Below are positions 12,669-34,269 of a stretch of 64,000 nt of DNA, one piece after another. Below the pieces are notes generated by a model, which saw nothing but the letters and a program-made list of their open reading frames with translations, did not search any database and had not been told where the DNA came from. A program made the translations under genes and the position numbers. Each line of letters opens with the position of its first letter. The first letter of the stretch is position 1. Origin of the DNA: Pseudogymnoascus verrucosus (lineage: Eukaryota); assembly GCA_001662655.1 (NCBI GenBank), contig KV460215.1. One strand, 5' to 3'.

Positions 12669-12856
12669 AGAGAAAACAGTTATGAATGTTTTTTTGCTTA
12701 TAACTGATTTGCCTGTTCTCGTTATTAATCAACTCATCAATTCCTTTTATGCATGGTGCAATTTAAGGAGAAGCGGGATAAGGATATTTGGCAAATGCCT
12801 GTCTTGTGGAGGAGGTATTATGACCTAGCTACTATCCCCTCCCGATATTTTCATAA

Positions 12857-13404
12857 CTAGATAACGGTTAGATTTAAGCTGCGATATAGACGCGGGATTG
12901 TTGCATGCCAATGATAGATTCCGGCTTCGTAGTTTGGGTCGGCAAGGACTTTCGTGATGTTGTTCGCAGAATAGGCATCCTTTCTTTCCTCCTTCACCAT
13001 CCCCACTGATGCAAGGTATCGCAGGATTCGGCCTTGGAAGTTGTCAGCAGGATTCCTCAATAATAGACCAAAATACATGCCCATAAGTTCTGGTGCAGCG
13101 CCAGACAGCTGAGCGAGTTCGCTGGTAGTTAGAGGCTTTCACTCTGAGCAATGGCACCGAAGATCTTAGAATCAGCCCCGATGCGAGCGCCGGCAGTTTG
13201 AAGATGCTACGGGAAAGGCTTTAGCTTTGTTCATTGTTTAACGAGAGAAACGGATCAACAGACTCGAGCCGAAATCCTCAACAGCGTCTCATACGGAGTT
13301 TCTAAGGAATATTGAAGGTTCCGAAGAGAATCTTAGATTTCCACTCGTCCAGCATCGTCAGTCTCATGAGCTAACTCTTGGATTTGAACAATCAGGCCCT
13401 CCAT
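12857..13404 (-). pseudogene. Truncated fungal O-methyltransferase (N-terminal part only)
   Basis: MEGLIVQIQELAHETDDAGRVEI*DSLRNLQYSLETPYETLLR with in-frame TAA at 13335-13333, then PLTTSELAQLSGAAPELM and RILRYLASVGMVKE..YSANNITKVL. No SAM-binding domain follows. Confidence 0.75.
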
Positions 13405-13599
13405 TGTTTGAGAATGGTACAAAAGCAGCCTGAGGTGACTTGATCAAGAGTCGCGAGAAGTATCAAGGTTCTGGTGGTATAACAAAGAATATATTTCGGC
13501 AGAGCCGTGAGTTATTCTCTCTCATGAGCTGGTCCGCCGAACCACGGATTTTGCGACTCACGTTGGGCCGGGGCAACCATGAGATTGAGGTAGCTTTAC

Positions 13600-14110
13600 A
13601 GTATAATTTATAAAATGTATATATCTAAAGATACCTTCTCAATTGTGTGTTTACCACCTAATTTACTAGATATAACCCTTATAATAGGAAGGCATTTTTT
13701 AATTCTTAACATTGTACATTTTATTAAGGTAGTATATATTAGTAAATTATATCTGTTAATAGTGGAAGTAGTAATAGAGGAGAAGTTGTAATAGTCTAAA
13801 TTGGCTTTTAAAATATGTAAAATTACCCTTATCTCATGGTTGGGCTGGCCTATTCGCAAGTTGAAAAACTTGCGGTTCGGCCGGCCCGCGAGGGAGAATA
13901 ACTCACGGCTAGGCGGGAACATATATAATAATCTGTTGAACAATCGAACTAGGTAAAAGTGGTGCGCTACACTTTGGCAGGCCAAAAGCTGGCTTATATT
14001 TTACAAAATAATCTTTACTGTTATAAAAGAGGTACACGTGCTCAGTCGTATTATGTAAGCAGTATGAGCTAATGCTTGTTTGTATTAAGCGTTACTAAGA
14101 ATCACCTAGC
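13600..14110. mobile_element. AT/TpA-rich degenerate segment, probable RIP-eroded transposon relic
   Basis: Abrupt AT-rich, TpA-rich tract with a small GC-rich island at 13838-13895. No recognisable protein. Confidence 0.35.
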
Positions 14111-14666
14111 GCACGGCTTCGGTCTTGTAACCGTCAGGGGGGCAGAAGAACTGGTGGCTTATTGCTCGACAACGTGGTCGTAGATCTTGGTGAATCTCCA
14201 CCATACATAGCCATGCATCTCAGATGTCTACCAATAGATCGTCACGCATTTGGAATGTGCCTGATTGCATCTTTTTTGCACGTTCTTAAAGAAGCCTATT
14301 GATTATCCAACGAGGTAGTTGAAGAAGTAAATATCAGGGTTCGGAACTTCAATCTCTGATTTCCAACTTCTAATGGCCAGCCTCTAATTGGCTCAAGTAT
14401 TAAATCAGTTGGGACCGCTCCACGTGTCCCTGTGCTCGTGGTAACATCCTTGCAATATCATTAGGAGTTTGGAGAGAAGGGCGGGAGAGGATCGTATTTC
14501 GAGAGATACCATTGCACGCATTGCCAAGCCACCGTTGCCCAGAATTCGAAGAGACGGGACACGAAGAATACAAATAGAAGCATGGCCAAGGCCGCAAAGA
14601 TGTCTATAGCAGCCCTCCATCCCAGCTCAAGCTTCAGTGACCCCTCCTTCTTTGACATCCAACACC

Positions 14667-16057
14667 ATGCGTTTCTCTACCGGAATCTACACCGCGGCTC
14701 TAGTTGCTGTGGCTGCTGCTGCGCCAAAGTCATCCTCAACCCCAGCCGCGAACCCTACGGCCACTGACCCGGCCGCCGTCTATGCTGCTCAAGCTACAGC
14801 CAAGACCGAGAGTCCAACGAGCCATGTCAAGGGCAAAGTCTTTGACCGCTTCGTAACAATCTGGTTTGAGAATACAGACTTTCAATCAGCTGCCGCCGAA
14901 GGTAAGTTTCAGCCATAATTCCCTGCAATTCTTGCTTCTCGGTGATAACCCAAGCTAATCTATAGAATTGAAGCAAACTTCGAGTTCTTCGCAAAGAAGG
15001 GCATCACTCTGGAGAACTACTTTGCTGTTACGCATCCCAGTGAGCCTAACTACATGGCCGCCGTTGGCGGTGACTACTTCGGGCTGAACGGCGACCCATT
15101 CATCGCCGTGCCAGAGAATGTTTCCACCGTCGTGGATCTTCTCGAGGACAAGAAGATCAGCTGGGGTGTTTATCAGGAAGATATGCCATACAGTGGATTC
15201 CAAGGCTTCTCATGGGTCAACCAAAAAACTGGCAAGAATGACTATGTTCGCAAACACAAGTAAGTCCTCGACCACATGCATATTGAGTAAAAGACTTACA
15301 ATCCAAAAGCCCAGCAGTCTTGTTTAACTCCGTTGCCAACGACGCAGACCGTCTCTCCAAGATCAAGAATCTTACCATGTTCCAGCAGGACTTGAAAGCT
15401 AACAAGTTGCCACAATGGATGTTCATCACACCAAACATGACCAGCGATGCACATGACGCCCCCATCGGCACGGCTGGTGCCTGGCTCCGAACTTTCCTCG
15501 AGCCTCTTCTCAACGACAAGAACTTCATGCAGAACACCATGGTTCTGATCACCTTCGACGAAAACAGCTCGTACCCCAAGCAGAACCGGGCTTTCTCTGT
15601 CCTTCTCGGCGACGCCATCCCCAAGAACCTTGTCGGCACCACCGACTCCAACTTCTACAACCACTACTCCGAGATTGCTACCGTTGAGGCCAACTGGGAT
15701 ACCCACACTCTCGGCCGCTATGATGTGGGCGCCAATGTCTTCAGCAATGTTGCCAAGCACACGAATGACAAGCTGCGTAGCTGGACAGGCACGCCAGCAC
15801 TCGCCGACACCACCTTCAACGCCAGCTATCCTGGTATCTTCCACTCGACGACGTGGGCGCCGCAGCCAGTTCCCAACACCTTGATCAAGGTCAACGGAAG
15901 AACCGTTCTGCCAAAGATCAGGAAGCAATGGGTTTCCCAGCAGAAGAAGACGGTGTATTGTGGACAACTGGAAATTCCGACCTCTGCGAACCCACCCAAG
16001 GGAACATGTCCGGGGCCCTCGGGCAACGACGGGCACTCCCAGCAGCATCACGGCTAA
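14667..16057 (+). CDS. Secreted acid phosphatase, phosphoesterase family
   Basis: Signal peptide, VKGKVFDRFVTIWFENTD, THPSEPNY, YQEDMPY, RKHNP, LPQWMFITPNM, LITFDEN, YNHYS. Introns 14902-14973 and 15260-15309. Confidence 0.92.
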
Positions 16058-16288
16058 GCCGATAACTGGGTTGGATCCTTCCTCAACCCTCTTGCAAATA
16101 ATCTCTGCGCAAATTTTGTCCTTCGATTAATTAGAAATGACTCGTCTGGTGATGAATGTTTTGGCTCACTTTGACCTAAAATACTAGATGGGACGAACAT
16201 TTTGCATTACTTGTATGTGTGGACTGAGTATAAATATTATTATCAAATCTAGTGGCATCTAAATCTAAATCATCTCGAATGATAGTGT

Positions 16289-17524
16289 TTAAAGTTTTGC
16301 GGTAGCTCTCCTATGTTTCACCAACAAAAACCGGGAAAATAAATCGACCTTGCCTACTGTGCCTCCTTCCTTGAAATCCGCTCCCATAATTGCCTTGTAC
16401 TGATCCGGGCGAAACTCGCTGACCAGCAAGAATCCGCTGCGAATGTAATTGGTGCATATGCCGTTTCCACTTGCGCATTTACCATCCGTTGTACCTGCAT
16501 ACTGGCTGTTCCCGAGTGTCATTACATCGATCAACACATTAGCAAATGGTTTCATTTGCTCTGCCGTAATCGCCCAGTTACCGTCAACATAGGCTCGATA
16601 GAAGCCATTGATATCCAGAGACGCGTGATTAGAATCCTCCACGTTATTCTGGTCCATTGCATAGTTCCAGACGTAAATCGGGTTCCCCTTCTTGCTTTTC
16701 TTGATTGTTGATCCACCACCAGTAAAAAACCATTTCAGATTTGCAGTCATAATATTCTTGTATTTAGATACCAACGCGGGGTTATCGCCCAAAATGGTGT
16801 GGGCTGCAACGAGATTCTGGAAGGCATAGTTGAACATCATCTGTTGGTTCCAAGGGACGGCTTGACCTCCCTTGTAGGGAGAATCTTTGGCGAAATACAT
16901 TTTATTGCCATTGGAGAGGTCGAGTAGTCGAGAGAGGATATGTCCAGACATTACTTTATCGGCCTGAGTAAGATATGTTTTGGCTCGCTCAAGGTATGTC
17001 TTGCCATAGTGATTCTTGTCGCCAATTGTAACAGCCTGGTTGTAAAGTGCTTTAGTCCCAAGTATGAGATTCGCACAGCTTGCTAAATGGCCCACCGGAT
17101 CGCCTTGCTCGCCACCCGTGATGATAACTTTCGTGGATGGATCGTTGGGCCAAACTGGCGCAATATCCCCCGTCCAAATCTTGTGCTGCCCAACAGGTTT
17201 CGCAGCTATGTCGTTTCTCTCGGATAACACTGCATCGCAATAACTAAGCATCTTATCGAGAACGGGCTGTTGGCCAGATATCTGATAGACAACACCCATG
17301 GCCTTTGTCTCTTCTCCGCTGTGGCCTTGTGCCCAGTTATTGCCGACGTTGTCCTTCGCGGGCTGCAACGTAGCAATATAGGTGCTGAAAGAATCAAGCT
17401 CCTCCTTGGTGACAGGGCCATCGAAGCTAGTAACCTTCATAGTAGCTCCAAGTACTAAATGTACATGAAGACAGAACATAAGAGCCACTGCGCTGCCGCA
17501 GCTACGGAGGGATGTGAGCATCAT
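16289..17524 (-). CDS. Secreted intronless protein of unknown function (possible alpha/alpha-toroid, carbohydrate-active)
   Basis: 411-aa single-exon ORF with hydrophobic N-terminus. Motifs GEQGDPVGHLA, PWNQQMM, EDSNHA. Confidence 0.75.
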   Translation of the reverse strand: MMLTSLRSCGSAVALMFCLHVHLVLGATMKVTSFDGPVTKEELDSFSTYIATLQPAKDNVGNNWAQGHSGEETKAMGVVYQISGQQPVLDKMLSYCDAVLSERNDIAAKPVGQHKIWTGDIAPVWPNDPSTKVIITGGEQGDPVGHLASCANLILGTKALYNQAVTIGDKNHYGKTYLERAKTYLTQADKVMSGHILSRLLDLSNGNKMYFAKDSPYKGGQAVPWNQQMMFNYAFQNLVAAHTILGDNPALVSKYKNIMTANLKWFFTGGGSTIKKSKKGNPIYVWNYAMDQNNVEDSNHASLDINGFYRAYVDGNWAITAEQMKPFANVLIDVMTLGNSQYAGTTDGKCASGNGICTNYIRSGFLLVSEFRPDQYKAIMGADFKEGGTVGKVDLFSRFLLVKHRRATAKL

Positions 17525-18583
17525 TGTCGAAATCAAAAAGATGCCAAAATATGAGAGAATAGTAAGAATGACTTCTATGAACTTTGGGCGACTTCGCAGC
17601 CATTTTATATCTATTCGTTGAGAAACCTTTAATATAAATGTGCGAATCTAACGCAGGGTCAATTGTGGGGTTGTACAAGCATTTGTGGACTGTAGATCAC
17701 CGGGCGGGCCGCTGTCTTATGCGATATGGTTTTCGGTGAATGAATGCCGAGTGCCTTCCGCTATTAGACAACGTGCAAAATTCTTAGGGAAACGGCAAGG
17801 GTAATGTGTTGGAGATTCGGGGAAACTGGGGTTTGCCGAAAAATTGGCCCTACTTTGGGCCTTTCCCCGAGACATCTCACATGCGAGAGCTGGTGTGAAG
17901 CCAGCTGACCCAGCCGACCAGAAGACCTGGCAAGACCTACATGTAGGATATTCGGCCACCCTCCAGGAACCTTCCATATACAGTAACTACGTAGGTTATT
18001 TAGATAGTCATATAATTTACTTGATCTTTATATTTCTATATACTGTACATACTGCTTGTAATAGAGAAAACCACGCGGTTTTGGGTGTGGATCCCCGTAT
18101 TCTGTGCCCATCTCAATATTCCACAGTAATCATTCCCGACTTCTCTTCTCTTCTAAAATTGCTAATCTATGAGGAATTATAAATGCCACCTGAGCGAGGT
18201 ATTCTGTACAACCAAACTAATGCCTTGAGTTTCAAACATGACACACCACTTTCCTATTTAGGTTATCTACACCGTGGCTCGTAGCAGGGCACTTTACAAC
18301 CTTATCGAGCTTAAATAGACACATCAAGAATACCACAAATTATCATCATAGCCAAGACTGATCTCACATTAATGAAATCCCTTCCATACACCCTAGGTAC
18401 AAATCCCCTTTGTAAGCTCCATCTCAGTATGCCTATCAGTATAATAGGCGTGTTTTAAGACCATTCGCTCGCTTGATCGAGTTTTAATGCCACAGCTTCT
18501 ACAATAAAAAAAGATATTTATAATCTTGAAGTGAGCCATAGGAGTGGAAACAAGGCCTTATATACAAATGACTATTCTTTGAC

Positions 18584-19629
18584 CTAAACAACAAACTTTG
18601 TTTTATTTTCTTCTCCAGCTTCTCTTGCAATCCTTGCGACTTCTTCTTCTCCAGCCTCGCCAAAAATATCATATCCCCACCTAGCTGGGAAATTAAACCT
18701 CTTATGCCTCTCTAATGCATCCAATTCCTTCATCGCACTCTCTGGCAACAATTTATCTTCAAAGTTGCTCTTAATTCTGCTATCCGTGACACTCTTCGGC
18801 AACACGACGTGTCCTGTTTGGACACCCCAGCTAACAAGCACCTGTCCGGGATCCAATCCCAATCCTTTACCAACCTCATGCACCTTCGCATCATCGACTG
18901 TGCGTGGCTCGCCTGTCTGGTTGTTTCCCAGCGGACTGTAAGCTTCCAGTAGAATGCCCTTGGACTTGCAGAAGGCAGCAAGCTCGGGTTGCTGCAGGTA
19001 AGGGTGTTTCTCGATCTGGTTTACTGACGGAATAACTTTGCAGTCCTTAAGAAGCGTCTCCAAATGCGGGATATTGAAATTTGAAATCCCGATAGCGCGG
19101 ACTTTTTTGGTTTCGAGCAACGCTTCCATCGCAGCGTACGTCTTGGTGAAAGGCGTGTCAGAGAGGCGGAAAACGCCAGTCTTTGGGTCTAGGGGAAAGA
19201 ATTTTGGACCGGCGGCGAAGGCGCATGGCCAGTGCATGAGGTACAGGTCAACATATTCTGTTCCGAGATCTGCGAGCGTCTTATTTAATGCTGATTCGAC
19301 GTCTTTGGGTTCGTGAGATGCGTTCCAGAGCTTAGATGTAATAAAGATTTCCTCGCGCTTCACGCCGCTCTTCTTAATGCCTTCTCCAACTTCGGCTTCG
19401 TTGCGGTAAATCGAAGCGCAGTCGATGTGGCGGTAACCGCAACGCAGAGCGGTTTCCACTGCTTGTTCAACCTCGCGAGGAGCTGCTCTAATGCTGATGT
19501 GTTAGCTTTTTGGACTGTGACAAATTGTTTCTTAACAATATAGGATTGGTTTACTTGCTGCCATGTTCCAAACCCCACGGCCGGGATTTTCGCGCCAGTG
19601 TTTAAAGTGAATGTTCGACCTAGAGACAT
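18584..19629 (-). CDS. Aldo-keto reductase (Gcy1/glycerol dehydrogenase-like)
   Basis: IPAVGFGTWQ, GYRHIDCASIY, ITSKLW, DLYLMHWP, AIGISNF, VNQIE, AYSPLG, VLPKS. One intron 19558-19488 with a GC donor. Confidence 0.95.
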
Positions 19630-19860
19630 TTTTTATTTGTTGTACCGAACGTGAACTTGCAAATCGGGTTTTGCACAAGAAAGGGATTGACATAGTATTT
19701 AAAATAAAAAAAACCCAAACTACCCCGCAGGCTAGAGATCACCCCGCTGGCGAACTAGTTACCTATTTCCGGCTCTGGTATATTCAAAATTCGAATCATA
19801 CATAGTCTGGATTTCAGTTAGGGTTGATTCATTCGAATATGGAACACCCATCGTTTTTTG

Positions 19861-19999
19861 GTGGGGTTTGAAGGCAACTTCGGATATTCGGAAAAGGACA
19901 TTTCCGTCCCGCCCCCGCTCTACGCTAGCAAGAAGGGGTATCCCCGCATTCGTCCCCATATATGTCGGTCCGCCAGTTCAACAGTCTTCCGAATCTCCG
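19861..19999. promoter_or_regulatory. CGG-N5-CGG elements and CreA-type sites in the AKR/TF divergent promoter
   Basis: CGGATATTCGGAAA at 19881-19894, reverse-strand CGGAGATTCGG at 19989-19999, GTGGGG at 19861. Confidence 0.65.
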
Positions 20000-20073
20000 G
20001 CAGAATCATCAATCTCATGATTCCGACCCAAACTTGAGCAGACGGGATAGAGGAAAGTGGCATTGAAGCCAAC

Positions 20074-22677
20074 ATGGGCCCCGCCACAGAACTAGGCACC
20101 ACTACCTTAAATGTTGAGAATAGGAAGAGACGAAGGGTCAGCAAAGCATGTGAGAGCTGTCGCATGTAGGTGTTTTTATTTACAACTCGGAGAATTGAGG
20201 TCTACCTATTAGATCCATATTATGGTTCCATTTTCCCTGTAAATTCAGACATGGATAGAAATTTATGCTTCTAATTCAATGGCTTCATGAACTACTGGAA
20301 AATAAGCATGGCTAACAGATTGAAGGAAGAAAATTTCATGCTCAGTTACAAAGCCCTGCATAAGGTGCTGTGAGGACACCATCGTTTGCGTATATGACGT
20401 CCTTGATGGAAGAAAGACGAGAGCAAAAACGAGGCAGCCGAATTCTCCAAGACAATCAACCACCAATACTGCTGTCTCTGTGGGAATAGAGCTTGAAAAA
20501 GCATCTACATCAAACGGTAGTAGTTCAAGTACCAAAGCTGTCTATGACAGCGGAGATCATTATGTCGGAGCTGCCTCGGGGCTATCTTTCTTACAGCAGG
20601 CTGTACAACATATCGAGAGTCAGAAAGGTTCGAACGATGCTGTCGGCAGTGCCGTAGATGTCGAGTACGCAAGCCCGGCTTCAGCTTCAATTTTCAACAG
20701 TGGGGATATGCCATCTCTGTCGCGACCCACCGACAGATTTGTGATGCCAAGTAAGGACGAATCAGATCGCATGCTGGCACGATACTTTGAATTTGCCACT
20801 CCTACCTATCGTTTCTTTCATCGGCCAACTGTTGAGAGTTGGGCGTGCCAGCTATGCTTGCGTCCAGATACGAGCAATTCTAAACAAAAAGAAAGTAGGC
20901 TTGAGGGTGTGAGAGCGGCGGCTGTATATTTGGTGTGGGCGCAGGCGATTGAATATGAAGACATGACTCAAAGAGGGTCAAAATCAAGGTGAGAAAATGA
21001 CATACAGGTTGAGTAATGCTTACTATTGTAGCGCACCTTATTTCGAGAAGGCAGTCTCAATTCTCGAAACCGAACCAGGGCCCCCACAACTCGAGAGTGT
21101 CCAGGCTCGACTCGCAATGTGTCTTTATCTGCTAAGCACGTTCCGTATCAACGAATGTTGGTACCGCTTTGGTATGACAACACTCATAATCATGGCGATG
21201 GGGCTGCATCGCAAAACCGAAACGTCAAGGAAAGTTGGGCTTGTCGAGCAGGAGTGTCGAAAGCGAGCCTTCTGGAGTTCCTACATTTTGGATCGTTATC
21301 TAAGCGTTATGAAGGGTCGACCACGTATATTCCGCGACGAAGATATTGATCAGGAATATCCGGTGAATGTAGATGACGATGACATGGTATTTACAGACAA
21401 AGACTTAATAGCAGTATTGCCTTTGAGAGGACTTTTGGATGCTTCGATCAACCATGCAAAGTTCGTTAACCGTAAAGAACTTCAACGTATAACAACATCG
21501 CTAACTGATGCAGGCTATCTACCATCATGGGAAATGCCACAGATATGCTCTATCCTCTTAGACCTTTGACCCGTGGAGAACTTCAGACGAAAGCGGGCTT
21601 GGTTACGAAGCTCCTCGACGATTGGGAACAAGGTTTACCTCAATTTTTAAGACCAACACATAGAACCTTCACTGGGAAACGGATGTTTGAACGTAAACAC
21701 TCCATGTCAGTAAATTTTAATTTTAAAACGTTAACACAGTGACAGGTCAGAATAGTGTTCTTAAGCTATCACACGCTCATATGCGGATTTTAATCAATCG
21801 TCAATTCCTACTCTCGAATTTTTCAACGCTGGGCCAGGTAGACAGACCTGACGACGATGATTTGGAACATCAGAAATATGTCCGCGACTGTATCAGTGCA
21901 GCGTATGTCATAATCGACACGGGTACGTCTTATTCTACAACCTTTGTATTATCACTGACCCTATTTAGTGGAAGGTTTTGTGGATGATGGCAATCTGTAG
22001 GTTAATCTGCGGCACAAACCATGGAATCACTAACTAATAGTCCCCCTAATTGCAGTATAAAAGGGTTTTGGTTTACACAATATATCGCCCTGTGTGCCAT
22101 CTCAACACTCTACATCTACATCATCCACCATCGCCTTAACCCGAATTCCTTGGTGTCACCAAGCGGTAAAAGCTATTTCGCAGCAGCTGGCAAGTGCCGC
22201 AATTACATCGAGAACCTAGCACCAGAGGGGAGCCATAGTAAGAGGTATAATACGCTGCTGACGCGGTTGAGAAATAGGGCGATGCGGTCAATGGGAGATG
22301 CTGTGGTTGATTCCGAGGGTGACCGAATGAGATATAATGCCACCGAAGTTAGTGGATTGTTGCCGCATAATCACCCGATTGAGCCAGTGTATAATGGGAA
22401 TTTTTACGGGGAAGGGGGTAATAACGAGCGTGGTGTAGGAATGGAGGCAGGCTTTGAGACAGGGGGTCAGGAAGTGGGTATACAAATTCCAGAATACCCA
22501 GACTCCGGCTCCGGCCTTATAATGGAAAATGATACCCTCCAGCTTACTTGGGGATATCTCGACCAGTTAGGTAGGTATTATGAAAGCTATATTGCCTATT
22601 ATTTACTAACAGAGACTTTAGGTTTGCCCGAACACTTTGATGCCTTTAGCACACAGTATGAGGAAGACTACTTTTAG
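20074..22677 (+). CDS. Zn(II)2Cys6 transcription factor with Fungal_trans middle domain, multi-exon
   Basis: RKRRRVSKACESCR...ISCSVTKPCIRCCEDTIVCVY split by an intron. YFEFATPTYRFFH, GLHR, ECRKRAFWSSYILDRYLS..GRP. Confidence 0.9.
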
Positions 22678-22802
22678 AATAAGCTTAAGAATGGTAGATT
22701 TCCACTAATTGTATTTACTGAAACCTTACCAAGAAGTCTTAAATAAGTAACTTCATATCTAAGATGTGCCTTCTAGTTCAAACTATCCCTATAATTTATA
22801 TT

Positions 22803-25800
22803 TTACAATCCTAGAACACCGAAAACCTCTTCTGCTAAATCCTGCGGCATATTCTTCGCATCCACTGGCAAAATATCAATTTCGTCAACCCGTGGTCCTT
22901 CCAAAATAGCCATTTGTGACTCCACCATATCAGCCTTCATATAATGGCCCGTCCGCATCTCCAGCCTTCTAGCCAACTCAACCTTTTTCTCAACCTGTAG
23001 CATCACAAACACGGTTCTAATCCTCTTCCCTACACCCCTCAGTACATCTCGATATCTGCCCTTCAGCGCGGAGCACGCCAGAACTACCACACCCTTACCA
23101 TTCGTTGAGATCTCGAGCTCGGCCTTAGCTCGTAGACGCGCAAGCCACAACCACCTGTCTTCGTCGTCGAGAGCTTGGCCACTCGCCATCTTAGCCAGGG
23201 CTTGGACATCATGGTGCTGGTCGCCCTCGATAAATGAACAATTCAGCTTACGTGCAATCTCTGTGCCTACAGTGGATTTGCCAGCGCCACATGGCCCAGC
23301 GACGACGATGATGGTGCCTTGGATATTTTCCGTGGTTTTCCATGATGTGGTGATGAAATGACCAACGAACTTGTCAACGAGTTCTTGGCTCAGGATCTCC
23401 GCCATCGCGAGAGCCGGCGATAGGCTTTGTGCACGCTGGGTGTTATATTGTAGGCCTTTGCGTACGATGTTGTCGTTGTCATATTTCTTGGTAAAGAAAT
23501 CGAGGAGCTTGATAGGTGGATTTTGCACTGGATCTGGGTTCGACGCCTTTAGACGCGAGATCCATTCACGTTGACCGAGTTCTTCGAACTGCAAGCTGGC
23601 GGCATGGAGTTTTGGGAGAAGGTCGCGCGTCCAGTGGAAGGATTGCGTAGCTACGACGTTTGTGGTTCCAGCCGGGGAGTCCGAGATAGAGATTTCGGAT
23701 ACCGCTTTCGCAACCACATCAACAGGTAGCCAGAGAGGAGACTCATCAAGTGCAGGGATGGCTCCAATGGTCTTGCCGGCTTGTAGAATCAGAGGTATGG
23801 CTTCGGTTGCGTTCCAGATTCCGTGTTGTGTGTCTGCAACAATTTGGCCCACACGTAAGGTGCGTGCTTTCATTCCGGTCTGACATGCGGCTTGGTGTAC
23901 GATGTTCTCTGTCACAAGTTTAGACTGTGCATAGCCCATGTTTTGTGCATAATCCAAGTTGGGCGGGAGGTCCTCAACAACGGCCTCTCCTGGAGGCGTT
24001 GATGCGACGGCGCTGACGGAGGAGCAGAAATTGAATGCTGCAGGTGATGGTCGACCAGCTGACAAGCAAAGGCCCATGAGATGCTTAGCTCCTGTAAAAT
24101 TGAATGATTAGACAATATTATTAGTTCCCTGACAAATTTCACTTACCTGCAATGCAGTCTTTCTCAAAACTCTGGAGACTTAAATTGAAATTCACAGACC
24201 AGGCGCAATGGATCAAGCACGTAATATTGAGGGCAATCTCAGCATATACTGCCGAGCCAAGTCCTAAGTCCTCTTTTGAGAAATCTGATGGAAGCGCGAC
24301 AATTTTTCTTCGAGCTTCAAGGGGCAACTGATGATAACAGCCTCGGGTGTTCATCGAGGATATAACGCGCGTGATGGCATCGCTTTCTGATTTGGCACGA
24401 ACAAAGCAGTAGACTTGTTTAACGCCAGGGAGCAGTACTATTTGGGCTATGATGTGTGCTCCCAGTGACCCAGTTGCGCCAGTCAAAACCTAAATCTTGT
24501 TAAAAGACGAAAGTCATGCCTCAGACATATATGACTTACAATGTACTGGCCTTCATTGGAATTAGGCTTTGGTATGTGATGTTGAAAGCTTCCATATTTT
24601 TCAATTAATTGAGCCATCTGCTCTTGAACCGGTATTGATTTAGAAGTTTGGCCATCCTGTAACAAAACTAGCTCTCTGGTCAGAGCATTAACTGATGGGA
24701 AATCAAAAACAAAATTCATGGCGAGTACCTTCCCAGACACCGGAAGCTTCTTCAGAATGAGCGAACGCAACTGTAAAGCTTGCAAGGAGTCAAGGCCAAC
24801 GGAGAAAAGATCGGTGTCATCGTCAAGCTCTCCTTGGCCATTCAAGGTGCAGACCTTCTCCTTCAAGAAGGCGCGGATCTCAGGCTCTGTGCTTGGAGCA
24901 TTAGTTGATGGTGATAGCTCAGATGTTGAGTAAACATCCTCTATCTCTTTCTCAAAGAGTTTGTAGAACGCTTGGCGAATAACAGTTCCCTTATCTGTTT
25001 GGGGACTATTAAATGGTTAGGAATAGTAGATAATTAATAGCAGTAATAAACTCACTACGTCGAGCTTGCTGGCAGAAGCTTCAACATCTCCACGGAGACT
25101 CTAGCATATCCTGGGGCTGCCGCATTAGATGACTCTACAACTGGCCAGATATGTTCAAGGATCCGGCTTTCAGGCATGCCGGCTGTCTCTTTGGATGGAA
25201 TAATCATCATGCCTAATTGAGGCCTCCCGTTACCGAAAACTACTGCTTCACGGACGTATTTGTTGTCGCGAATAGCCTGTTCCATGTCAGTTGGGCCAAC
25301 TTTCTCTCCGTTGAGAAGTGCGATTGTATCGTCGAGCCGTGCGCTGTACTTCCAAGCGTTTGGGATGCTGGGGTGAGGTGTGAAAAGGTCTTTCGTCGCA
25401 TAAGAACCATCTGATCTGTTTGTCGCCACTTTGGAAGGCCATCCGTCTAACACAACCAATTCGAAAAGGTCCAGTCCCCGAGATTCCCATCTCAGGAAAG
25501 GGATCAAGGTGGCTGATGGCCGTAGGTAGTTCCAAACTTTATCACTGCGGTCTCTGAATGAGGTCATCAATTGACCAGTCTCCGTACTGTTGCGACATAT
25601 ATTAGCAATTAATCTATTGGAATATGAGTCAAATCGCTGTACTAACGTGCCATAGTGACTGATGAGATTTACCCCAGCGCCGACTAGCCTATCCCCCAGA
25701 CTATCAGGGCACGCAGATCCACCAAACATCACCACTTGCAATTTGACGAGAGCCTTAATTCCTTCCTCGGTCTCTCCAAGTAACTTTAGGGCATACGGTA

Positions 25801-26750
25801 CGCCATAAAGTATTTCGAAACTGTGCTCAGCCATGATACTGAGTAGTGTGTTATGGGTGAGTGGTAGATTCGCATTATACATGTAAATCTTCTTCATCGA
25901 TGTGAAGGCTCGAAAAACGCTGCTAATACCATGTGCATGGAATAGTGGTAACGTGATGAACCCTCGCATATTGAGGTTGTTTTCATAACTAGATTGATGG
26001 TTAGTTGTGGCCATGAACCTAAATTGAAGGAGCTTACTTCGTAAGAGCAGCCCTATGAGTTTGAAAAATTGGTTTTGGCAATCCAGTGGATCCCGATGAA
26101 TGGATAATCCAGCAAATTTTCAGAGCCTCAAGCTCGAGATCGAGATGATAATCCAGGCAAGTATCCTGGTCATTCTCTCGAGTTGTAAATGCGTAAGATG
26201 CCGGTTGGGCAATTGGATAAGCGCTTAAATCAGGCATTGTTTTCCGCAATCGCTCTGCGGTCGTAGAAAACGACTCGTGGATAATTATGTCTCGGCATTG
26301 TGTACTCTCCAACAACGACAGGTACGCAGCATCAGATAACCTTGTTGAGAGGAACATCACTGTGAAACCTGACTTGGTCAGTGCAAGCACTGAAATCAAA
26401 TAATCCAGATTAGATGGCCCAAGCAATGCCACCACCTTTTCTTTCTCAGCGGATGACCGTCTTTGCGTCGTGTGTTGGACATATTGCTGTCCGACACGAT
26501 ATGCAAACACATCAAGTTCCCTGTATGTGTATTCGACGTAGTCTGTATTGTGAACTGGGTATGCAAGGATTGGCTCTTCTGGTTGATGGAAAGCTCGGAG
26601 GCGCATCAACTCATCAATGGTATGTGGGACATGATTTGTTGTAAACGTTCGCTGTCGTCTAGAATAGACTAATGAAGTATCGACTGGTGACAAGAAGCTT
26701 TGTGACGAAATATGCTGGATGGTCGAGGAGTGAGCAATATCAGCCGCCAT
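22803..26750 (-). CDS. NRPS-like A-T-R (carboxylic acid reductase type) enzyme with fused C-terminal gluconokinase-like domain, 6 exons
   Basis: Exons 26750-26038, 25988-25647, 25586-25056, 25005-24540, 24489-24147, 24091-22803. A: HSSGSTGLPKP, YGTTETG, TKDL, RLDD..NGEKV, TDKGTVIR. T: LFSVGLDSL. R: TGATGSLG, GYAQSK. Kinase: GPCGAGKST, EGDQHH, LDDEDRWLWL, ACSALK.RYRD. Confidence 0.93.
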
Positions 26751-26953
26751 CGTTGCCGTAGATTGTTGTTGTGGTATTGGTTTATGGCGTTTGATATTCT
26801 TGACTACGCTCAACGATTTTGGCCCTGTCTTTATAGAAGGAGAAGATTCTATGTGGCCAAATTAAGATAAAAAAGTTTTACTCCAAAGATTTAGTTCATC
26901 TGGCTCGGAGTGGCTCGATGTCAAAAAAATGCGAGGGACTGATGGCTACTGGC

Positions 26954-27003
26954 GTGGGGTATTTCCGGCGTAGCGTTGTTTTCCGGATATTCGGAAATCC
27001 GGA
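26954..27003. promoter_or_regulatory. CGG-N5-CGG element and CreA-type site in the NRPS-like/MFS divergent promoter
   Basis: CGGATATTCGGAAA at 26984-26997, identical to 19881-19894. GTGGGG at 26954 and further CCGG triplets nearby. Confidence 0.65.
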
Positions 27004-27300
27004 CTTGCAAACTTTATACCAATACTCGGAGAAAAGCCTACAAGTGCTTGACATGCCTAGGTCTCCAGCACGCTTATTCTTCTCCGCAATTTCCTAGCGA
27101 AGTACCGACCATCTTCCCCGCAATCCAGTGGTGATGGCAGTGGCACTAGTTGGCTAGACTTCACGGATAACCATATTTCATGTACGCAGTATATAAGGTA
27201 AGGTCTTTGGACCTTATTTTTCCCCGCAATCTTAATTCCAATTGAGCATCTTTCAGTTTCACATACCGATACTTGGCATCAAGTTGCTTTCGTCGCCGAA

Positions 27301-29049
27301 ATGTCTAAGATTGATGTGCATGATGTTCAGTTAGTCGAGACAGTGACAACCACATCGGACGAGAAGCCTCTCGCGGCTGTTGACATTCGGGTCCCTCTAC
27401 CTAGTGAACTTATTCACCTTTCACTAGAGGAGCAGGACATCCTTGAAAAGCATATTGTTAAAAAAATGGACAGAAGACTGATGCCAATCATCATTGTCAT
27501 GTAAGAAACTCGCTCTATATATCACTTTGCGGCATTAACAAGAGTTCCTAGGTTTTGGTTGAATATTCTAGATAGAAATTCTATCGCCAACGCAAAGATT
27601 GCGGGACTCCCAAAAGACCTTAACATGAACAACGCGCAGTACAACACATGCCTTCTTATTTTCTATGTCGTACGTATCCCCATGACACTACTATGATTGC
27701 AAGCTTAAAAATGTACTAACTTCCTTCTAGGGCTATGTTCTCACCCAGCTTCCTAGCAATGCAATCCTGCCAATGGTTCGCCCGTCAATCTATATCCCAC
27801 TTGTCACTTGTGCATGGGGATTAATGAGCATGGCGCAAGGTTTCTTGCATAACTTCCAAAGCATTATGGTCGTGCGATTCTTCATCGGCGTTCTGGAAGG
27901 TCCTTTCTTCCCTGGGGTGATATTCCTTCTGTCTTGCTGGTACAAGAAAGAAGAGCTGGTAAAGCGCATAGCATTTCTCTATGGTACGTCTCATCGAAGA
28001 ACCGATCTATTCAATTCTCAAATACTAATTTGGCATGCAGCCGGAAATATCTTGTCGTCGTGTTTCGGAGGCCTCATCGCAGCTGGCATCATCGGAGGCA
28101 TGGAGGGGGTCGGCGGATATGCTGCCTGGCGTTGGCTATTCATAATTGAAGGTCTTGTGACAGTTGCGGTCGGCATTTTGGCCATGTTTCTGTTTCCCGA
28201 CTACCCAAGAACAACTCGCTGGCTCACTAAAGAGGAAGGACTCTTTGCTGAATGGCGTCTCGCGAATGAAGTTGCTGGTATCGTCGACGAAGACAGCTCT
28301 GGAATCTGGTGGGGAGTGTCACAGGCTCTACGCGACCCTCTTACTTACCTTTTCACCTTTATGCAAATGATGCTAACTACTGGCCAATCGTTCACTTACT
28401 TCTTGCCGTCAATTATCAAGACGCTGGGTTACAATAATACCATCACCCTCCTGCTCACTGCACCTCCTTATGCAGTTGCGTTTCTTGGGTCGGTTGCATT
28501 GGCATATTCGTCGTCTAAGAGGAAGGAGTTCTGCATGCACATCTGCTTTCCGCTTATCATCTCGGTTATTGGAAATATTCTCGCCATGACTGTTAATGGT
28601 ACCGGTGGGCGCTATTTTGCTATATTCTTGATGGCCTTTGGCGTCTACGTGTAAGTTTATTCCTCCAGAACAACACCACTTAATCACAAAAAACAACCTA
28701 ATAAACCCTCAGAGTATATAATGTTAACTACGCCTGGGTCTCATCGTCTATTCCCCGTCCCCGAGCTAAGCGCGCTGCATCATTAGCAATCATCAATTTG
28801 ATGTCCGGAGGTGCAACACACTTTTACACTTCATACCTATTCCCGGACAGTGACGCGCCCCGATACTACATGGGTGGTTCAGCGCTCACTGTTGCAGTGT
28901 TCTTTTGCGCTATGACCGCTATTACGATTCGTTTCTACTTAGCCAGACTAAACAAGAAGATTGAGGCTGCTGGTGGTGATGCGGAAGCTGCGCTCCGAGC
29001 TAACAAGGGACACACAGAGACGATGAAGGCTTTTAAATATCAATTGTAG
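27301..29049 (+). CDS. MFS transporter, allantoate permease / anion:cation symporter (Dal5/Tna1-like) family
   Basis: KMDRRLMP, LDRNSIANAKIAG, RFFIGVLEGPFFPG..LSCWYKKEELVKR, AWRWLFIIEG, LLTAPPY, DAPRY. Several short introns. Confidence 0.92.
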
Positions 29050-29205: not shown

Positions 29206-30891
29206 CTAAGCCTGGTCAAATAGAGGCGACTCTTCCAACATGTCTAGAAAGTCTAGCAAGCCTGCTGTGTCTGATGACGGTGGTAGAGAGGTTTCTTGGT
29301 GTATAACTTGTTCCCGAGGGCTCATCAACACCCAGCATACTGTTCCAAAATATGGCATCGTTAGTTCAAGGCCGGCACCACTTTTCTTCATCCACGAATA
29401 GTTGGCGCCGTCAGCAACCTGCTCCTCAATTCCTACTAACTTCTTTAGGATCTCTACCTCGAAGTTTGGCACATGCATCTCTTCCAATAAGCTAAGAACA
29501 TTATTGACAAGTGCCAGGTCTTGAGGTCGCTGGTGTTCTAGCGAATTTGCTTGGCCAAGTCGATATCCGTCAATATGTGCAAGGAGTAATACACACATGG
29601 CCGTACAAGCCTTCTCTTCAAATCCGAAATACGAGCCTCCCCTGTGAAAGCTGCGGATCACGAGGAAGCGCAAGAGAACCTCACGACTCGCCGAGCAAAC
29701 GACCAATTTGCTATAGGAGACATGTTCGTTTGTCGTAGGAGAGACAAGTGATTTTACGATGTAGGGCTGGTGGAGGACCACTATGAGGTAGTGATGGGTT
29801 AGTTGTGCGGAGAGTGTCGAGGTCTTCTCCAGAACATCGGCTGCAGCTAGACCGTGTAGAGAGCTAAATGACCACCAATCGGATGGCAGGGACCGTGCTA
29901 CTTGCTTTAAGGAGTAGTCAATCTTCAGTGTCTCATCGTACTCCGGCTCCCCTTGCCGCTGCATGCGTAGATTTCGTGCGATTATACGCCCTGAGACCAC
30001 GACATGAATGTATTTTAATTTTGACAGTGCATCGCCTCGAGGATCTGAGAAGTTGTTGTCTTCCACGGCAAATGGAAGTCCTAATCTCAACGACATGTAG
30101 CGGTCTGCCATGAGGAGAAGAAACCATATGCCCTCCGCGCGGTCCGTCATCTCGGTCACACCTAGCCCTAACAGCTGGGCGATAGCTAGGGCTCGACGAA
30201 ATCTCAGCCAAGCAACACGCGGGTTTCCGTTGTTGATATGATAGGTTGCTTCCAGAGTCAGCGCTTCCAACCCATCTAGAGAGTTCATTAAGTCGTCTTT
30301 AGACATGACATGCTGTGATGCAATTTCAATATAGCGTGCAGCTTCGTCCACCTGACCATTTGATTGTTGCAAGCAGATTGCGAGTCGTATCAATCTGCGG
30401 GCGAACTGTACTGGATGAGCAGATGGAGGCGGTGGCTCCTGCTGCACAGCACCCACCGCCCGTCCTGTTGGGGTGGGCATCAGGGTAAACTTTCCATGCT
30501 CTATGATTACTGCAGTAGTCGCTGGCGGTGGGAGAATCGAGTACAGGTACCTTCCCACAGAGAAGCTGGAGATTGACTGTGGTACGCTAAGTAGCATTGT
30601 GCGATTTGGCGATTTGTTTTTTTGTTCCTGTTGACCACGCTGTCGTAGCAGCTGGTCAACAAGCGTCTCGACACGGTCAAGATTATTCTCCATCTGTCCA
30701 CGGCTTTCGCTTTCGCCTGCACTTTCGTTATCTACAACGAACTCCTGACTGACGCATAACAGCCCTCGTTGCTGACAGGACAGACACACAGAGCATGGCG
30801 GCGTAACTTCGCAGCGTATCTTGCGGCGTTTGCACTCCCAGCAGCTGAATGTTTTCTTTCGCACCTTTAGCCTCTTGAGTGGTCTTGACAT
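29206..30891 (-). CDS. Zn(II)2Cys6 transcription factor (single exon)
   Basis: RKKTFSCWECKRRKIRC..PCSVCLSCQQRGLLC, AIAQLLGL, DRYMSLRLGLP, LHQPY. Confidence 0.9.
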   Translation of the reverse strand: MSRPLKRLKVRKKTFSCWECKRRKIRCEVTPPCSVCLSCQQRGLLCVSQEFVVDNESAGESESRGQMENNLDRVETLVDQLLRQRGQQEQKNKSPNRTMLLSVPQSISSFSVGRYLYSILPPPATTAVIIEHGKFTLMPTPTGRAVGAVQQEPPPPSAHPVQFARRLIRLAICLQQSNGQVDEAARYIEIASQHVMSKDDLMNSLDGLEALTLEATYHINNGNPRVAWLRFRRALAIAQLLGLGVTEMTDRAEGIWFLLLMADRYMSLRLGLPFAVEDNNFSDPRGDALSKLKYIHVVVSGRIIARNLRMQRQGEPEYDETLKIDYSLKQVARSLPSDWWSFSSLHGLAAADVLEKTSTLSAQLTHHYLIVVLHQPYIVKSLVSPTTNEHVSYSKLVVCSASREVLLRFLVIRSFHRGGSYFGFEEKACTAMCVLLLAHIDGYRLGQANSLEHQRPQDLALVNNVLSLLEEMHVPNFEVEILKKLVGIEEQVADGANYSWMKKSGAGLELTMPYFGTVCWVLMSPREQVIHQETSLPPSSDTAGLLDFLDMLEESPLFDQA

Positions 30892-30945
30892 TGTTTTATT
30901 TGCTGAATTGAAAACTGAACAATTTAACTTATTATGGTTTCTGCT

Positions 30946-31260
30946 TAACGTATTTCACAAGCGAGTGAGCCACGAAAACACTAAAAATTGACTATTGCTA
31001 CTACTACTATTCTACTACCTTACATAATAACCCTTATTCGATTGTAATTAATTTCTAGCGCCTCTTACACGTACGAGCATTATGCCCTATATTACCAAAT
31101 GTGCCACATCGCTGCTGTTAGCCTATAGAACCCACCTGCTGAGTAGTCCTACTTACCACCTCTATATAGAGTCGAGCATTAACCTTAGCACTCTAAAGGA
31201 TATCCTCTCCCACTGTCCAGTTCTCTTTGCCATCTAGCGCGATAAAGCTGAACTCATGGG
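30946..31260 (-). mobile_element. 3' end relic of a Fot1/pogo-type DNA transposon
   Basis: TA followed by ACGTATTTCACAAGCGAGTGAGCCACG resembles Fot1/Pot2-class termini. Minus strand at about 31117-31061 encodes QQRCGTFGNIGHNARTCKR, a degenerate CX2CX4HX4C knuckle as at transposase C-termini, flanked by stops. Confidence 0.75.
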
Positions 31261-31421
31261 TAGGGTGGCGTTAGAAAGTGGTCTTGTTTCTGTCAATCAC
31301 AGGATAGTGGCCGTAGATTCTCACCAAGGGATGTCCTCGAATACCGGTTTAAGATGACTCTATGTGGATCTTGTTCAAAAATTGCCCGAATCTCTACCCT
31401 CCCACATATTAATAATACAAA

Positions 31422-32268
31422 TTAATACATAGCCCATCCTCCACTGGCACTCACAACCTGCCCAGTAACCCATCTACTCCCTTCGCTCGCCATCCACGAC
31501 ACAATCTGCGCAATATCATCGACCGTACCAATCCGATTCTGAACCGGTGTTGACGCCTTCTGCATCTCAACCGTCTCCTTCGGAATATTATCTATTAGCT
31601 GCGTCTGTACTGGGCCTGGGTTAACGCAATTTACTGTGTGTCCCTGAGCTCCGAGCTCGGCCGCCCAGCACCGCGTCAGACCTTCCAGTGCCGCCTTTGA
31701 GGAGCAGTATACGGAGAGGTTCTTGAAACCGGCACGCGCGCCGACGGAGCTGAGATTGATGATGCGACCAGGGGCGCGGAGGTGGGGGAGCACGGCTTGC
31801 GTTAGGAGGAGCGGTGCTCGGACGTTGAGGTCGTAAACGTAGGATAAGTCCGACGCGGTGATGTCTTGAAGGGGTTTGACGAGCTCGACGCCGGCGTTAT
31901 TGACAAGAATGTCGACTTTGGGACCGAATCTAGCGAGGGTAGCTTCAACGATTGCTTGTGCAGCGGATATTTGTCGCAGGTCGGCCTGGATCCCAATTGC
32001 ACTCGCGCCGTTGTCTAGATCGTTGATCTGAGAGATGAGCTCATCTACGCCTTTCGAGCTCCCTGGAGACGTGTATGTTATGACTATCTATTTCCGATGG
32101 GTCAGGATTAAATGTGCGAAGGAGAATATGATTGAAAGTCACCTTCGCACCGTGACGAGCCAGTTCAAGTGCTATTCCTGCCCCGATACCTCGAGATGCA
32201 CCAGTGACTATAGCAATCTTGTTCGCCAAGGATAGGGGGTTCGTCTCGTGCCTTGTATTAGAAGCCAT
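31422..32268 (-). CDS. Classical short-chain dehydrogenase/reductase (FabG-like)
   Basis: [51 protein letters not shown]. Intron 32142-32088. Confidence 0.93.
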
Positions 32269-32919
32269 GATATCGATGCTTTCGCTGGCGTAGCGTTGAG
32301 GATACAATATTCAATTCTTCGAGCTTTAAACTTGATTATAAAATGAATTGCAGCCCATGATGCTTCAGCCTCCATATATACTGTTGGTTCTGTAGTCGGA
32401 TTTTCGGGTTTGCACCTTATCTCCAGAACTCTGCTTTATCTCAGAGGTCCTCCTGGGCGCAAAGACCACAGCCTGGGCCCACATGACGTAGTGTGGCGTC
32501 GCTAGCGCCGCCAGGCATAACGGTACCGATTGCCAAGACAATAGTGTTCCAGATACCACGAAGTCCATCAACGAAACGGCGAATAAAACGAATTTAATCT
32601 GATGCACGAAATACGGACATACTGCGAATATCGGGAATACCGCAAATATCGGGAATTTTCGTCCGTATTGTACATGAGTAGGATTGTTTCACGAGAAACA
32701 TGTAAGGATAATAGCACTACACGCAGCAGACGAAGCGTGAACAATTACTATCACCGAGCAATCGGACTTTGCATGCACTATATAGATGCATGACTATGCC
32801 ACCTTCTTTAAATCCTAACTTCAAGAGCAATAATAACTGCAGTAGACGACACACCAATATCAGTATCAGCAATCAAACCTCAAATCATCTTCCTGCCCAT
32901 TAGGTCAATCTTCCTCACC

Positions 32920-33427
32920 ATGTCAATCTACGTAGTCGCAATCATCACCCCGGCGCCAGGCAAAGAAGAGTTGGTACGCCGTCCATTCTCCTAGGGGTCT
33001 TCTAACACTTAATTTCACCCTTCGTGGCTTACGTCCCCAACCTGAGAACTAACAATTCATGCTTACGAATAGGTCAAATCGCTCCTCGCCGACTTCGCCA
33101 ACACCGTTAAAACCAACGAGCCAAATGCAGTGAGATATCTTGTGTTGGAGCAATACGACGGTCACGAGGGTGAATTATGCAAGCTCGTTGTGCAGGAGAC
33201 TTGTATGTAATATCTTACTACAGCATAGATGATTATCGAATCATGGGATGCGGTCCAAGGTAACTGAAACTGATCTGAATACAGATCATACACAAGAAGC
33301 CTTCGATGAACATTTCAAGACAGAGCATTTCGCCGCGCTAGGGAAGTTGATTGGTGAGGGTGGGTTGCTAGCCAGGCCGCTGGATATCAAGAAGGTGAGG
33401 CCGTTTGGAGGATTTGAAAGCCGATAG
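32920..33427 (+). CDS. ABM (antibiotic biosynthesis monooxygenase / dimeric alpha-beta barrel) protein, 3 exons, absent from the ORF track
   Basis: Exons 32920-32973, 33073-33202, 33285-33427 give MSIYVVAIITPAPGKEELVKSLL..VKTNEPNAVRY..VVQETYHTQEAFDEHFKTEHF..GGFESR. Confidence 0.85.
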
Positions 33428-33429
33428 AC

Positions 33430-33690
33430 AAATTGGAGGCGAGGTGTGCGGCCGAGAAAGCACGAGATAGGAATCTCAGCGCCCCTTCGGTTCTTGCGCA
33501 GGGTGATGACATCTTTGCTATTCCAGGCACGACCAAGATCCATCGTCTGGCAGAAAATTTGGGCAGTATGTCAATTTCTTTGTCCTCGGAAGAGGAGAAA
33601 GCAGTCCGCGAGTTAGCTAAAGGTGTTATGGGAGGCCGAGTTCAAAAACTAATGGGCCATACTTTTGCTGATACACCGCAATTGGAAAAA
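33430..33690 (+). pseudogene. C-terminal fragment of an aldo-keto reductase (YakC-like)
   Basis: VLAQGDDIFAIPGTTKIHRLAENLGSMSISLSSEE...FADTPQL. The N-terminal barrel is absent and there is no ATG start. Confidence 0.75.
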
Positions 33691-34269
33691 GTGTGGGGAT
33701 GCACCTTAAGGTTTTGCAGAAGTAATCCTACCCTGCCATTTCATCCATAGTCTTAGTTATGAAGATATTTACATCCTCGGCAATTTAAAGTTACATTAAC
33801 TATGCTGTTAGTAGTATTGTTTATTATCACTTCCAACACTTTAATCACGTGGTTACGTAGCGAAAAGGTGTGGTTTCCGAGCGCGAACCAAACTTGTAGA
33901 ATTCTATGGGGCTACGGCCTTTACTTATGCCGTGGCCCCTAAGCTACTCTACCGTACGAAACCATGCCCGTACACATAAGGTTTCAGGAAGTTGGTGCCT
34001 TAGGGGCCTGATTCCTAGGGCCGGAATTACAAAGGGTGCCATATGCGCCAATTGCTAACATACCTCGGGAATTATGAGTACTCGGGAATTACCCCTGTAG
34101 CACTTCCCCCCCGCACAAATGCGGGGAGCCAAGGTGACTTAACTCCATTCCCGCGGCAGACCAGGATGTCATCCACCCCGACTCGATTGATATAATGATG
34201 TGCTACCCGCGGCAAGGTAAGCTAAATACAAATCCTCCTACAATCTCAACAAAACCTTGAATCGCCACG

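Follow-up and report, generated by a model that had tools for sequence, protein, structure and literature searches.

Proteins of the non-ribosomal peptide synthetase (NRPS)-like type, in which adenylation (A), thiolation (T) and reductase (R) domains are followed by a kinase, have been listed for several ascomycetes, namely as Aspergillus niger NRRL3_02852 (A-T-R-Ki), Aspergillus flavus cluster 18 AFLA_054270 (A-T-R-gntK) and Phialocephala subalpina PAC_02202 (A-T-R-Kinase, 1227 aa), and in the portions of the sources available these clusters, together with the AN1680 cluster of Aspergillus nidulans, are catalogued as orphan secondary-metabolite clusters without a substrate. An aldo-keto reductase (AKR) and a transcription factor (TF) accompany the backbone gene in A. 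niger and A. nidulans, the A. nidulans AKR, AN1679, lies inside the curated AN1678-AN1681 (AN1680) cluster, and the A. niger cluster has an extra DUF7703 gene and a formamidase-like hydrolase. Here, a cluster with the same backbone architecture, an AKR, a TF and a major facilitator superfamily (MFS) permease is described from a 64,000-nucleotide stretch of Pseudogymnoascus verrucosus DNA (contig KV460215.1, assembly GCA_001662655.1), the whole of which is referred to as the window. The data argue strongly for a role in sugar-acid catabolism and make it probable that the chemistry runs from aldarate through uronate and aldonate to phosphate; the narrower proposal of an inducible module that takes D-glucarate through L-guluronate and D-gluconate to 6-phosphogluconate is put forward with moderate confidence. 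The full-text literature covered (most subscription journals and all patents lay outside it) yielded no substrate or pathway for the cluster and no fungal glucarate route. An earlier, sequence-only reading of this DNA had called the pathway undescribed, which is too broad for an architecture and a cluster already listed in genome papers and for an AKR assayed as SrdA, and stands for the pathway, none having been found assigned; what is known is thus the architecture and the cluster as table entries, and what is new is the assigned pathway proposal. The cluster genes are as follows.

18584..19629, minus strand: AKR gene; exons 19629-19559 and 19487-18584; 324 aa; PF00248; one GC-AG intron
20074..22677, plus strand: Zn2Cys6/Fungal_trans transcription factor; 716-719 aa, 8 exons; PF04082
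22803..26750, minus strand: NRPS-like A-T-R protein with predicted gluconokinase; 1227 aa; exons 26750-26038, 25988-25647, 25586-25056, 25005-24540, 24489-24147 and 24091-22803
22803..23312, minus strand: predicted GntK/IdnK-type gluconokinase domain at the C-terminus of the fusion; residues ~1059-1227
27301..29049, plus strand: MFS permease; 505 aa, 5 exons; PF07690; anion:cation symporter-like

The AKR and TF genes diverge across a 444-bp gap and the NRPS-like and MFS genes across one of 550 bp, while the TF and NRPS-like genes lie tail to tail with their ends 125 bp apart and no further gene lies inside the cluster. All four spliced models are open reading frames, and the coordinates and models bear out the original description of two head-to-head pairs of intact genes without an interloper. 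Domain matches across the four genes comprise AMP-binding, PP-binding, NAD_binding_4, kinase, Aldo_ket_red, Fungal_trans and MFS_1, and the proteins closest to those of the window are from Pseudogymnoascus. The six-exon NRPS-like model has GT-AG introns throughout and aligns without gaps to P0001 at 98.6% identity; furthermore, one contig of run X1 (presumed, as a guess, to be RNA; depth 2.8, with contigs unsuited to ranking expression) lacks its 55-nt last intron. The AKR start position agrees with that of P0121, and the TF model contains an intact zinc cluster (CX2CX6CX5CX2CX6C), its exon ends being model choices. The AKR intron (19488-19558, minus strand) is GC-AG, and public Pseudogymnoascus AKR entries have lengths of 316, 319 and 324 aa, probably owing to mis-called donors.

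In the proposed scheme, the MFS permease would import an aldaric acid (a sugar diacid), D-glucarate being the likeliest candidate. The A domain would adenylate one carboxylate, the T domain would hold the thioester and the R domain, with NADPH, would free the aldehyde, C6 of glucarate being the carbon reduced and L-guluronate the product. The AKR would then reduce the aldehyde with NADPH, converting L-guluronate to D-gluconate, and the fused gluconokinase would deliver 6-phosphogluconate to the pentose phosphate pathway, with the Zn2Cys6 factor activating both divergent promoters via CGGATATTCGGAAA when the inducer is present. We infer the substrates, regiochemistry, transport and factor binding. 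A diacid reduced twice at one end becomes an aldonate, so that the other carboxylate is kept for gluconokinase, and among the three hexarates checked D-glucarate alone, reduced at C6 via L-guluronate, gives D-gluconate. The scheme uses each cluster gene once and its product enters central metabolism. Glucarate occurs in plant tissue.

A search with the reductase-kinase exon returned 694 long proteins at E<=1e-20 among 8000 candidates scored; the homologue set used here is the 120 listed of these, 95 of them at least 1100 aa long. The kinase is in frame with the reductase domain and shares an exon with its end. It passes the TIGR01313 gluconokinase model (160 bits, cut-off 113.75), scores below the cut-off of the stricter Escherichia coli gluconokinase equivalog models, and has E. 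coli gluconate kinase 1KNQ as its best solved relative (E 1.5e-25). Positions that are near-invariant among 79 kinase-only matches, themselves retrieved with query-derived peptides, are retained in the 120 fused domains and in E. coli GntK (GK, D1089, H1092, M1100, R1111, W1114, CSAL, R1146, R1174, R1178, H1181 and Q1191). These features point to a GntK/IdnK-type gluconokinase that would make 6-phosphogluconate from D-gluconate. It is improbable that the domain is instead a gluconate sensor or a repair or detoxification module outside the catabolic sequence: low absolute expression of the A. niger fusion, a separate gluconokinase presumably present in fungi and the existence of a kinase-less sibling that is 50% identical would all suit such a role, but the catalytic residues are conserved in 117-120 of the 120 homologues, and the fused kinases fall together on one side of a branch (support 93/87) in a tree built from 30 of the 120 fused and 26 of the 79 kinase-only domains.

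Upstream of the kinase, the A, T and R domains occur in order and no condensation domain is present, as in NRPS-like carboxylic acid reductases. The A domain carries the motifs SSGSTGLPK and HYGTTE and the catalytic K534 (95/95 homologues), the T-domain DSL is found in 120/120, and the R domain has TGATGSLG and a GYAQSK whose G, Y and K are conserved in 120/120. At pocket positions assigned by NRPS numbering, the A domain is polar and conserved (H255 95/95, H257 90/95, Y299 90/95, H349 93/95, Q357 93/95, K534 95/95), and the same polar pocket is seen in the kinase-less sibling P0454. On these motifs, an ATP- and NADPH-dependent reductase of acid to aldehyde is proposed. The A-T-R logic of acid-to-aldehyde conversion is known from primary metabolism in Lys2 and in the glycine betaine reductase ATRR, and the NRPS-like reductase described here, which is real and conserved, is probably likewise of primary-metabolism type. 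It is neither of these enzymes: the Lys2 model TIGR03443 gives 39-44 bits on exon pieces against a cut-off of 1030, with no match to the A-domain exons, and ATRR ends in a second, YdfG-like reductase whereas the window fusion ends in a kinase and has its second reductase as a separate AKR. Among solved structures none matched the A-domain exon, with profile matches distant only; a scan of prokaryotic genomes with that exon confirmed 0 of 75 candidates. The ESM Atlas returned only generic A-T-R and 'gluconokinase' clusters, and a single-sequence fold of mean pLDDT 35 was uninformative. P0454 itself, a 1788-aa model from Aspergillus egyptiacus, joins a TF of the cluster's family to the kinase-less A-T-R protein and is likely to be two adjacent genes called as one; it is a candidate relative of A. 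niger 39114, discussed below.

The window AKR shares 68% identity over 324 aa with A. niger SrdA (NRRL3_02854, An01g14880) and with A. nidulans AN1679 and, by identity and synteny with the fusion gene, is the orthologue of SrdA, as it is of AN1679; the N terminus of P0212, MSLPSH, is that encoded by the published NRRL3_2854 primer. In configuration at C2-C4, D-lyxose corresponds to the L-gulo sugars and D-xylose to the D-gluco sugars. SrdA is an NADPH aldose reductase with its highest reported activity on D-lyxose (118.9 U/mg), its lowest among active pentoses on D-xylose (12.4) and none on D-glucose, and its Km for L-arabinose (4.7 mM) indicates good binding (PMC10744612, in part). Since D-lyxose has the L-gulo pattern, this profile favours L-guluronate over D-glucuronate as substrate, and by analogy the window AKR is proposed to be a uronate reductase.

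The sequence-only reading had placed the genes in a different order, with a sugar monoacid reduced to the aldose and then to the polyol, which would be phosphorylated or kept as an osmolyte. That SrdA is a proven aldose reductase and that two-step reduction of acid to alcohol by an NRPS-like enzyme exists (ATRR) speak for such a route. However, the kinase is of gluconokinase type with its residues intact, and of 122 compounds human gluconokinase is reported to be active on gluconate and its lactone only, with no activity towards hexoses, pentoses or polyols (PMC4045858, in part), which makes phosphorylation after polyol formation unlikely. Were gluconate the substrate, the kinase would be set against the reductase and SrdA would have to act on glucose, which it does not reduce; moreover, the inducer seen in A. 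niger is a diacid. The polyol route is accordingly regarded as very doubtful, and no evidence was found for an osmolyte role.

Linkage of the fusion to the AKR extends well beyond the genus. Named fusion homologues occur in Leotiomycetes, Dothideomycetes, Eurotiomycetes and Sordariomycetes, with 45-57% identity across the four classes. In 11 of 11 species outside Pseudogymnoascus for which both gene numbers were available from one strain (Cadophora sp. M221, Rhexocercosporidium, Coleophoma cylindrospora, Corynespora, Elsinoe, Cryomyces, Neophaeococcomyces, Verticillium albo-atrum, Xylariales PMI_506, Fusarium solani and A. niger), the two genes are 1-4 gene numbers apart, a count that omits fragmented or mixed-strain entries (Lachnellula, Hortaea, Aureobasidium) and is biased upward because four of the pairs (Rhexocercosporidium, Coleophoma, Corynespora and Xylariales) were looked up selectively. 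Recurrence in four ascomycete classes indicates that the linkage is more than chance. The nearest listed relatives of the TF adjoin the AKR gene in Tricladium and Xylariales PMI_506, and of 80 loci kept from a metagenome scan, 79 matched the kinase part only and one, L001, is a full-length fungal locus in which AKR/TF and MFS/fusion each form a head-to-head pair and the AKR has a cyclase-family hydrolase as its neighbour. The conserved core is therefore the fusion and the AKR, usually with the TF, and the expectation of conserved synteny holds for this core, the permease being more loosely linked.

The permease is the least conserved member of the cluster. It is linked to the fusion in Pseudogymnoascus, Cadophora M221 and Leptodophora. 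Its best NCBIfam models are the D-galactonate transporter TIGR00893 and HpaX, both below cut-off and on a 307-aa piece, and many of its homologues are named, in name only, allantoate permease; a role as sugar-acid importer is proposed from these similarities.

Both divergent promoters share a 14-nucleotide element:

19881..19894, plus strand: CGGATATTCGGAAA (CGG-N5-CGG), copy 1, AKR/TF divergent promoter; candidate Zn2Cys6 site
26984..26997, plus strand: exact CGGATATTCGGAAA, copy 2, NRPS-like/MFS divergent promoter; candidate Zn2Cys6 site
26992-27003: CGGAAATCCGGA, running on from the second copy in the NRPS-like/MFS promoter
19986-19999, minus strand: copy of CGGATATTCGGAAA with two mismatches, AKR/TF divergent promoter

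CGG repeats are typical Zn2Cys6 sites. The element is the longest perfect direct repeat within the cluster and has no third exact copy in the 64 kb; a shared word of at least 14 arose by chance in 5 of 2000 shuffled promoter pairs and in 5 of 1951 random window pairs. For CGGANNNNCGGA, a looser pattern, the signal is weak, at 6 occurrences against 2.19 expected in the window and 1 against 0.35 in L001, and the motif is known from this genome alone. A. nidulans AN1678 is reported to activate and bind its own promoter (PMC10714999, in part). The cluster is probably co-regulated, and the window TF is proposed to be its inducer-dependent activator.

Functional evidence comes from A. niger, in which the partly available sources give NRRL3_02852-02858 in the order fusion, hypothetical gene (813 bp), AKR, formamidase-like gene, MFS, TF and peptidase M24. 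The chr_202 genes of strain ATCC 1015, in the accessible part of the RNA-seq supplement of PMC5153877, have the same order and lengths, which identifies 1082594 (3794 bp) with NRRL3_02852 (A-T-R-Ki, coding sequence 3732) and 1082229 with NRRL3_02854. On galactaric acid at 0, 5 and 18 h the fusion stood at 0.016, 50.5 and 60.4 fragments per kilobase per million (FPKM), a rise of ~3000-fold over a near-zero baseline that puts it in row 5 of a sheet apparently sorted by fold, and the AKR at 0.25, 22.2 and 44.6 FPKM (88-fold), while the neighbouring hydrolase rose 17-fold. In the regularised-log (rlog) sheet the fusion changed by +0.9/-0.1 under 'Ga', +1.0/+3.3 under 'Gl' and +7.7/+8.1 under 'Ma'; taking Ga and Gl to be galacturonate and glucuronate, there is no rise on the former and a smaller rise on the latter than on galactarate. 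The main text of that paper does not discuss the fusion gene. Co-induction of the fusion and AKR by a sugar acid supports the nutritional role that had been suggested in place of secondary metabolism, and co-expression as predicted for the whole cluster holds for these two genes, the permease and TF of A. niger being barely induced (2.2-fold and 1.6-fold). In A. nidulans, all four genes of the AN1680 cluster are reported to rise on arabinogalactan and on starvation (PMC8780418, in part), which also speaks for the proposal.

A true secondary-metabolite cluster yielding a phosphorylated or otherwise reduced small molecule would fit the listing of the cluster as biosynthetic in A. niger, A. nidulans, A. 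flavus and Phialocephala, its near silence on rich media and the altered mycelial colour on overexpression of AN1678. Nevertheless, the core is without tailoring enzymes, induction is specific to carbon source and occurs together with catabolic genes, conservation spans four classes, and no product is named in the text covered; this explanation is given very little credence.

The closest functional precedent is also from A. niger. The AMP-dependent, A-T-R-sized gene 39114 and the AKR 1090836 are the top galactarate-induced enzymes, deletion of 39114 abolishing galactarate use and deletion of 1090836 lowering it (PMC5153877). A sugar diacid is thus handled by a reductase together with an AKR, and the window cluster resembles this pair in gene types and in the galactarate induction of its orthologues. 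Unlike the cluster genes, 39114 and 1090836 are unlinked (chr_701 and chr_502). At 3246 bp, 39114 is too short to include the kinase, and having been considered as the fusion orthologue it was rejected on length and location, 1082594 being on chr_202; its kinship to the fusion subfamily is weak, resting on size and a 5/6 peptide match from a primer. Fungal galactaric acid catabolism was stated to be not understood, and the key gene could not be assayed (PMC5153877); the assay may have failed for lack of ATP, none being listed, or of phosphopantetheinylation.

These data bear on whether the same chemistry acts on another diacid or another end, as in a secondary galactarate route, on mannarate, a C5 aldarate or tartrate, or by reduction of glucarate at C1 to D-glucuronate, which would join the known GaaA-GluC-GluF route to gluconate. 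Galactarate is the sole strong inducer seen, SrdA accepts D-galacto and D-manno patterns, and the fungal D-glucuronate pathway likewise ends in gluconate, gluconokinase and 6-phosphogluconate (PMC6353982, in part). On the other hand, deletion of 39114 alone blocks galactarate use with the fusion gene intact, galactonate or mannonate would require a re-specified kinase when the conserved residues match gluconokinases, and SrdA has little activity on substrates of the gluco/xylo pattern. Another diacid or end is thus considered unlikely, if well short of negligible. Neither the fungal D-glucuronate pathway nor the bacterial glucarate and galactarate pathways use a carrier-bound thioester for carboxylate reduction in the accounts available, and bacteria dehydrate aldarates to 2-keto-3-deoxy acids, in contrast to the proposed reduction.

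Several points weigh against the D-glucarate module. The observed inducer is galactarate, D-glucarate lying outside the conditions covered, and since galactarate use is lost without 39114 the cluster cannot substitute for that gene. The functional data are all from Aspergillus orthologues and none from this genome. The accessible expression sheets owe the high fold of the fusion to its baseline, take 0 h from rich medium and display no replicates, and the fusion stays ~100-fold below 39114 (50 vs 5497 FPKM; PMC5153877), with the neighbouring MFS and TF induction as low as given above. The rise of the A. nidulans AN1680 cluster on carbon starvation may be plain derepression. When A. niger NRRL3_02857 was overexpressed to 4019, the fusion remained at 0.07 and the AKR at 0.28, without induction, which fits a factor that requires inducer or a non-cognate one, as NRRL3_02857 may not be the orthologue of the window TF. 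LarA, SrdC and SrdE also use D-lyxose well, which means that SrdA is not alone in this preference; the affinity of SrdA for L-arabinose would correspond to the D-galacturonate pattern, and the part of PMC10744612 available leaves its physiological substrate open and makes no mention of the fusion gene next to it, uronates being outside the assay panel. Two of the kinase motifs are conserved by selection, through the peptides used for retrieval. Close homologues of the permease lie on other contigs or far off in Coleophoma crateriformis, Sphaceloma, Knufia, Zopfia and Xylariales.

The surroundings of the cluster provide several further observations. The flanks with housekeeping genes are mostly at 50-63% GC, whereas positions 8001-40000 of the window have 44-50%, placing the cluster inside a lower-GC accessory block. 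Beyond the MFS gene, 29206-32310 (minus strand) holds a second Zn2Cys6 factor and a short-chain dehydrogenase/reductase (SDR) with no 14-mer nearby and no close L001 match; these and an acyl-CoA dehydrogenase to the right were rejected as cluster members, having no counterparts in L001. At ~32950-33750 (plus strand) a small gene, ABM/YgiN-type-like by eye, overlaps at its end with a short remnant of an AKR C terminus (PF00248, E 0.003). A phosphoesterase-family gene (PF04185) lies at 14610-16057 (plus strand), two genes away from the AKR, and A. niger has a phosphoesterase a few genes past its cluster, a parallel that may be chance. An intronless gene at 16289-17647 (minus strand) encodes a probably secreted 410-aa protein without a Pfam match, which scores 0.94-0.96 in the ESM Atlas to clusters, most of them bacterial, with the automatic names glycosyl hydrolase or alpha-1,2-mannosidase, a lead only. 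In L001, a second module beside the fusion (12040-20528) comprises an MFS protein, a YdfG-like SDR, a related TF, a DHDPS-family aldolase and one more protein, without a family match, that we take to resemble glycerate kinase; the module looks like further sugar-acid catabolism.

The cluster offers a complete scheme for aldarate use, with the genes named in two laboratory moulds. If the proposal is true, a widely catalogued orphan 'secondary-metabolite' cluster would move to carbon catabolism, SrdA would gain a physiological substrate, carboxylic acid reductases would have polyhydroxy diacids added to their substrates, and fungi engineered to make glucaric acid would gain a deletion target. 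It would also mean that fungi possess a glucarate pathway and that an NRPS-like enzyme can carry its own sugar-acid kinase, neither found described in the literature covered. For filamentous ascomycetes more broadly, the chances seem evenly divided that there is an NRPS-derived aldarate-reductase family, in which the fusion would perform the first and last steps of glucarate use and kinase-less siblings such as 39114 would serve galactarate.

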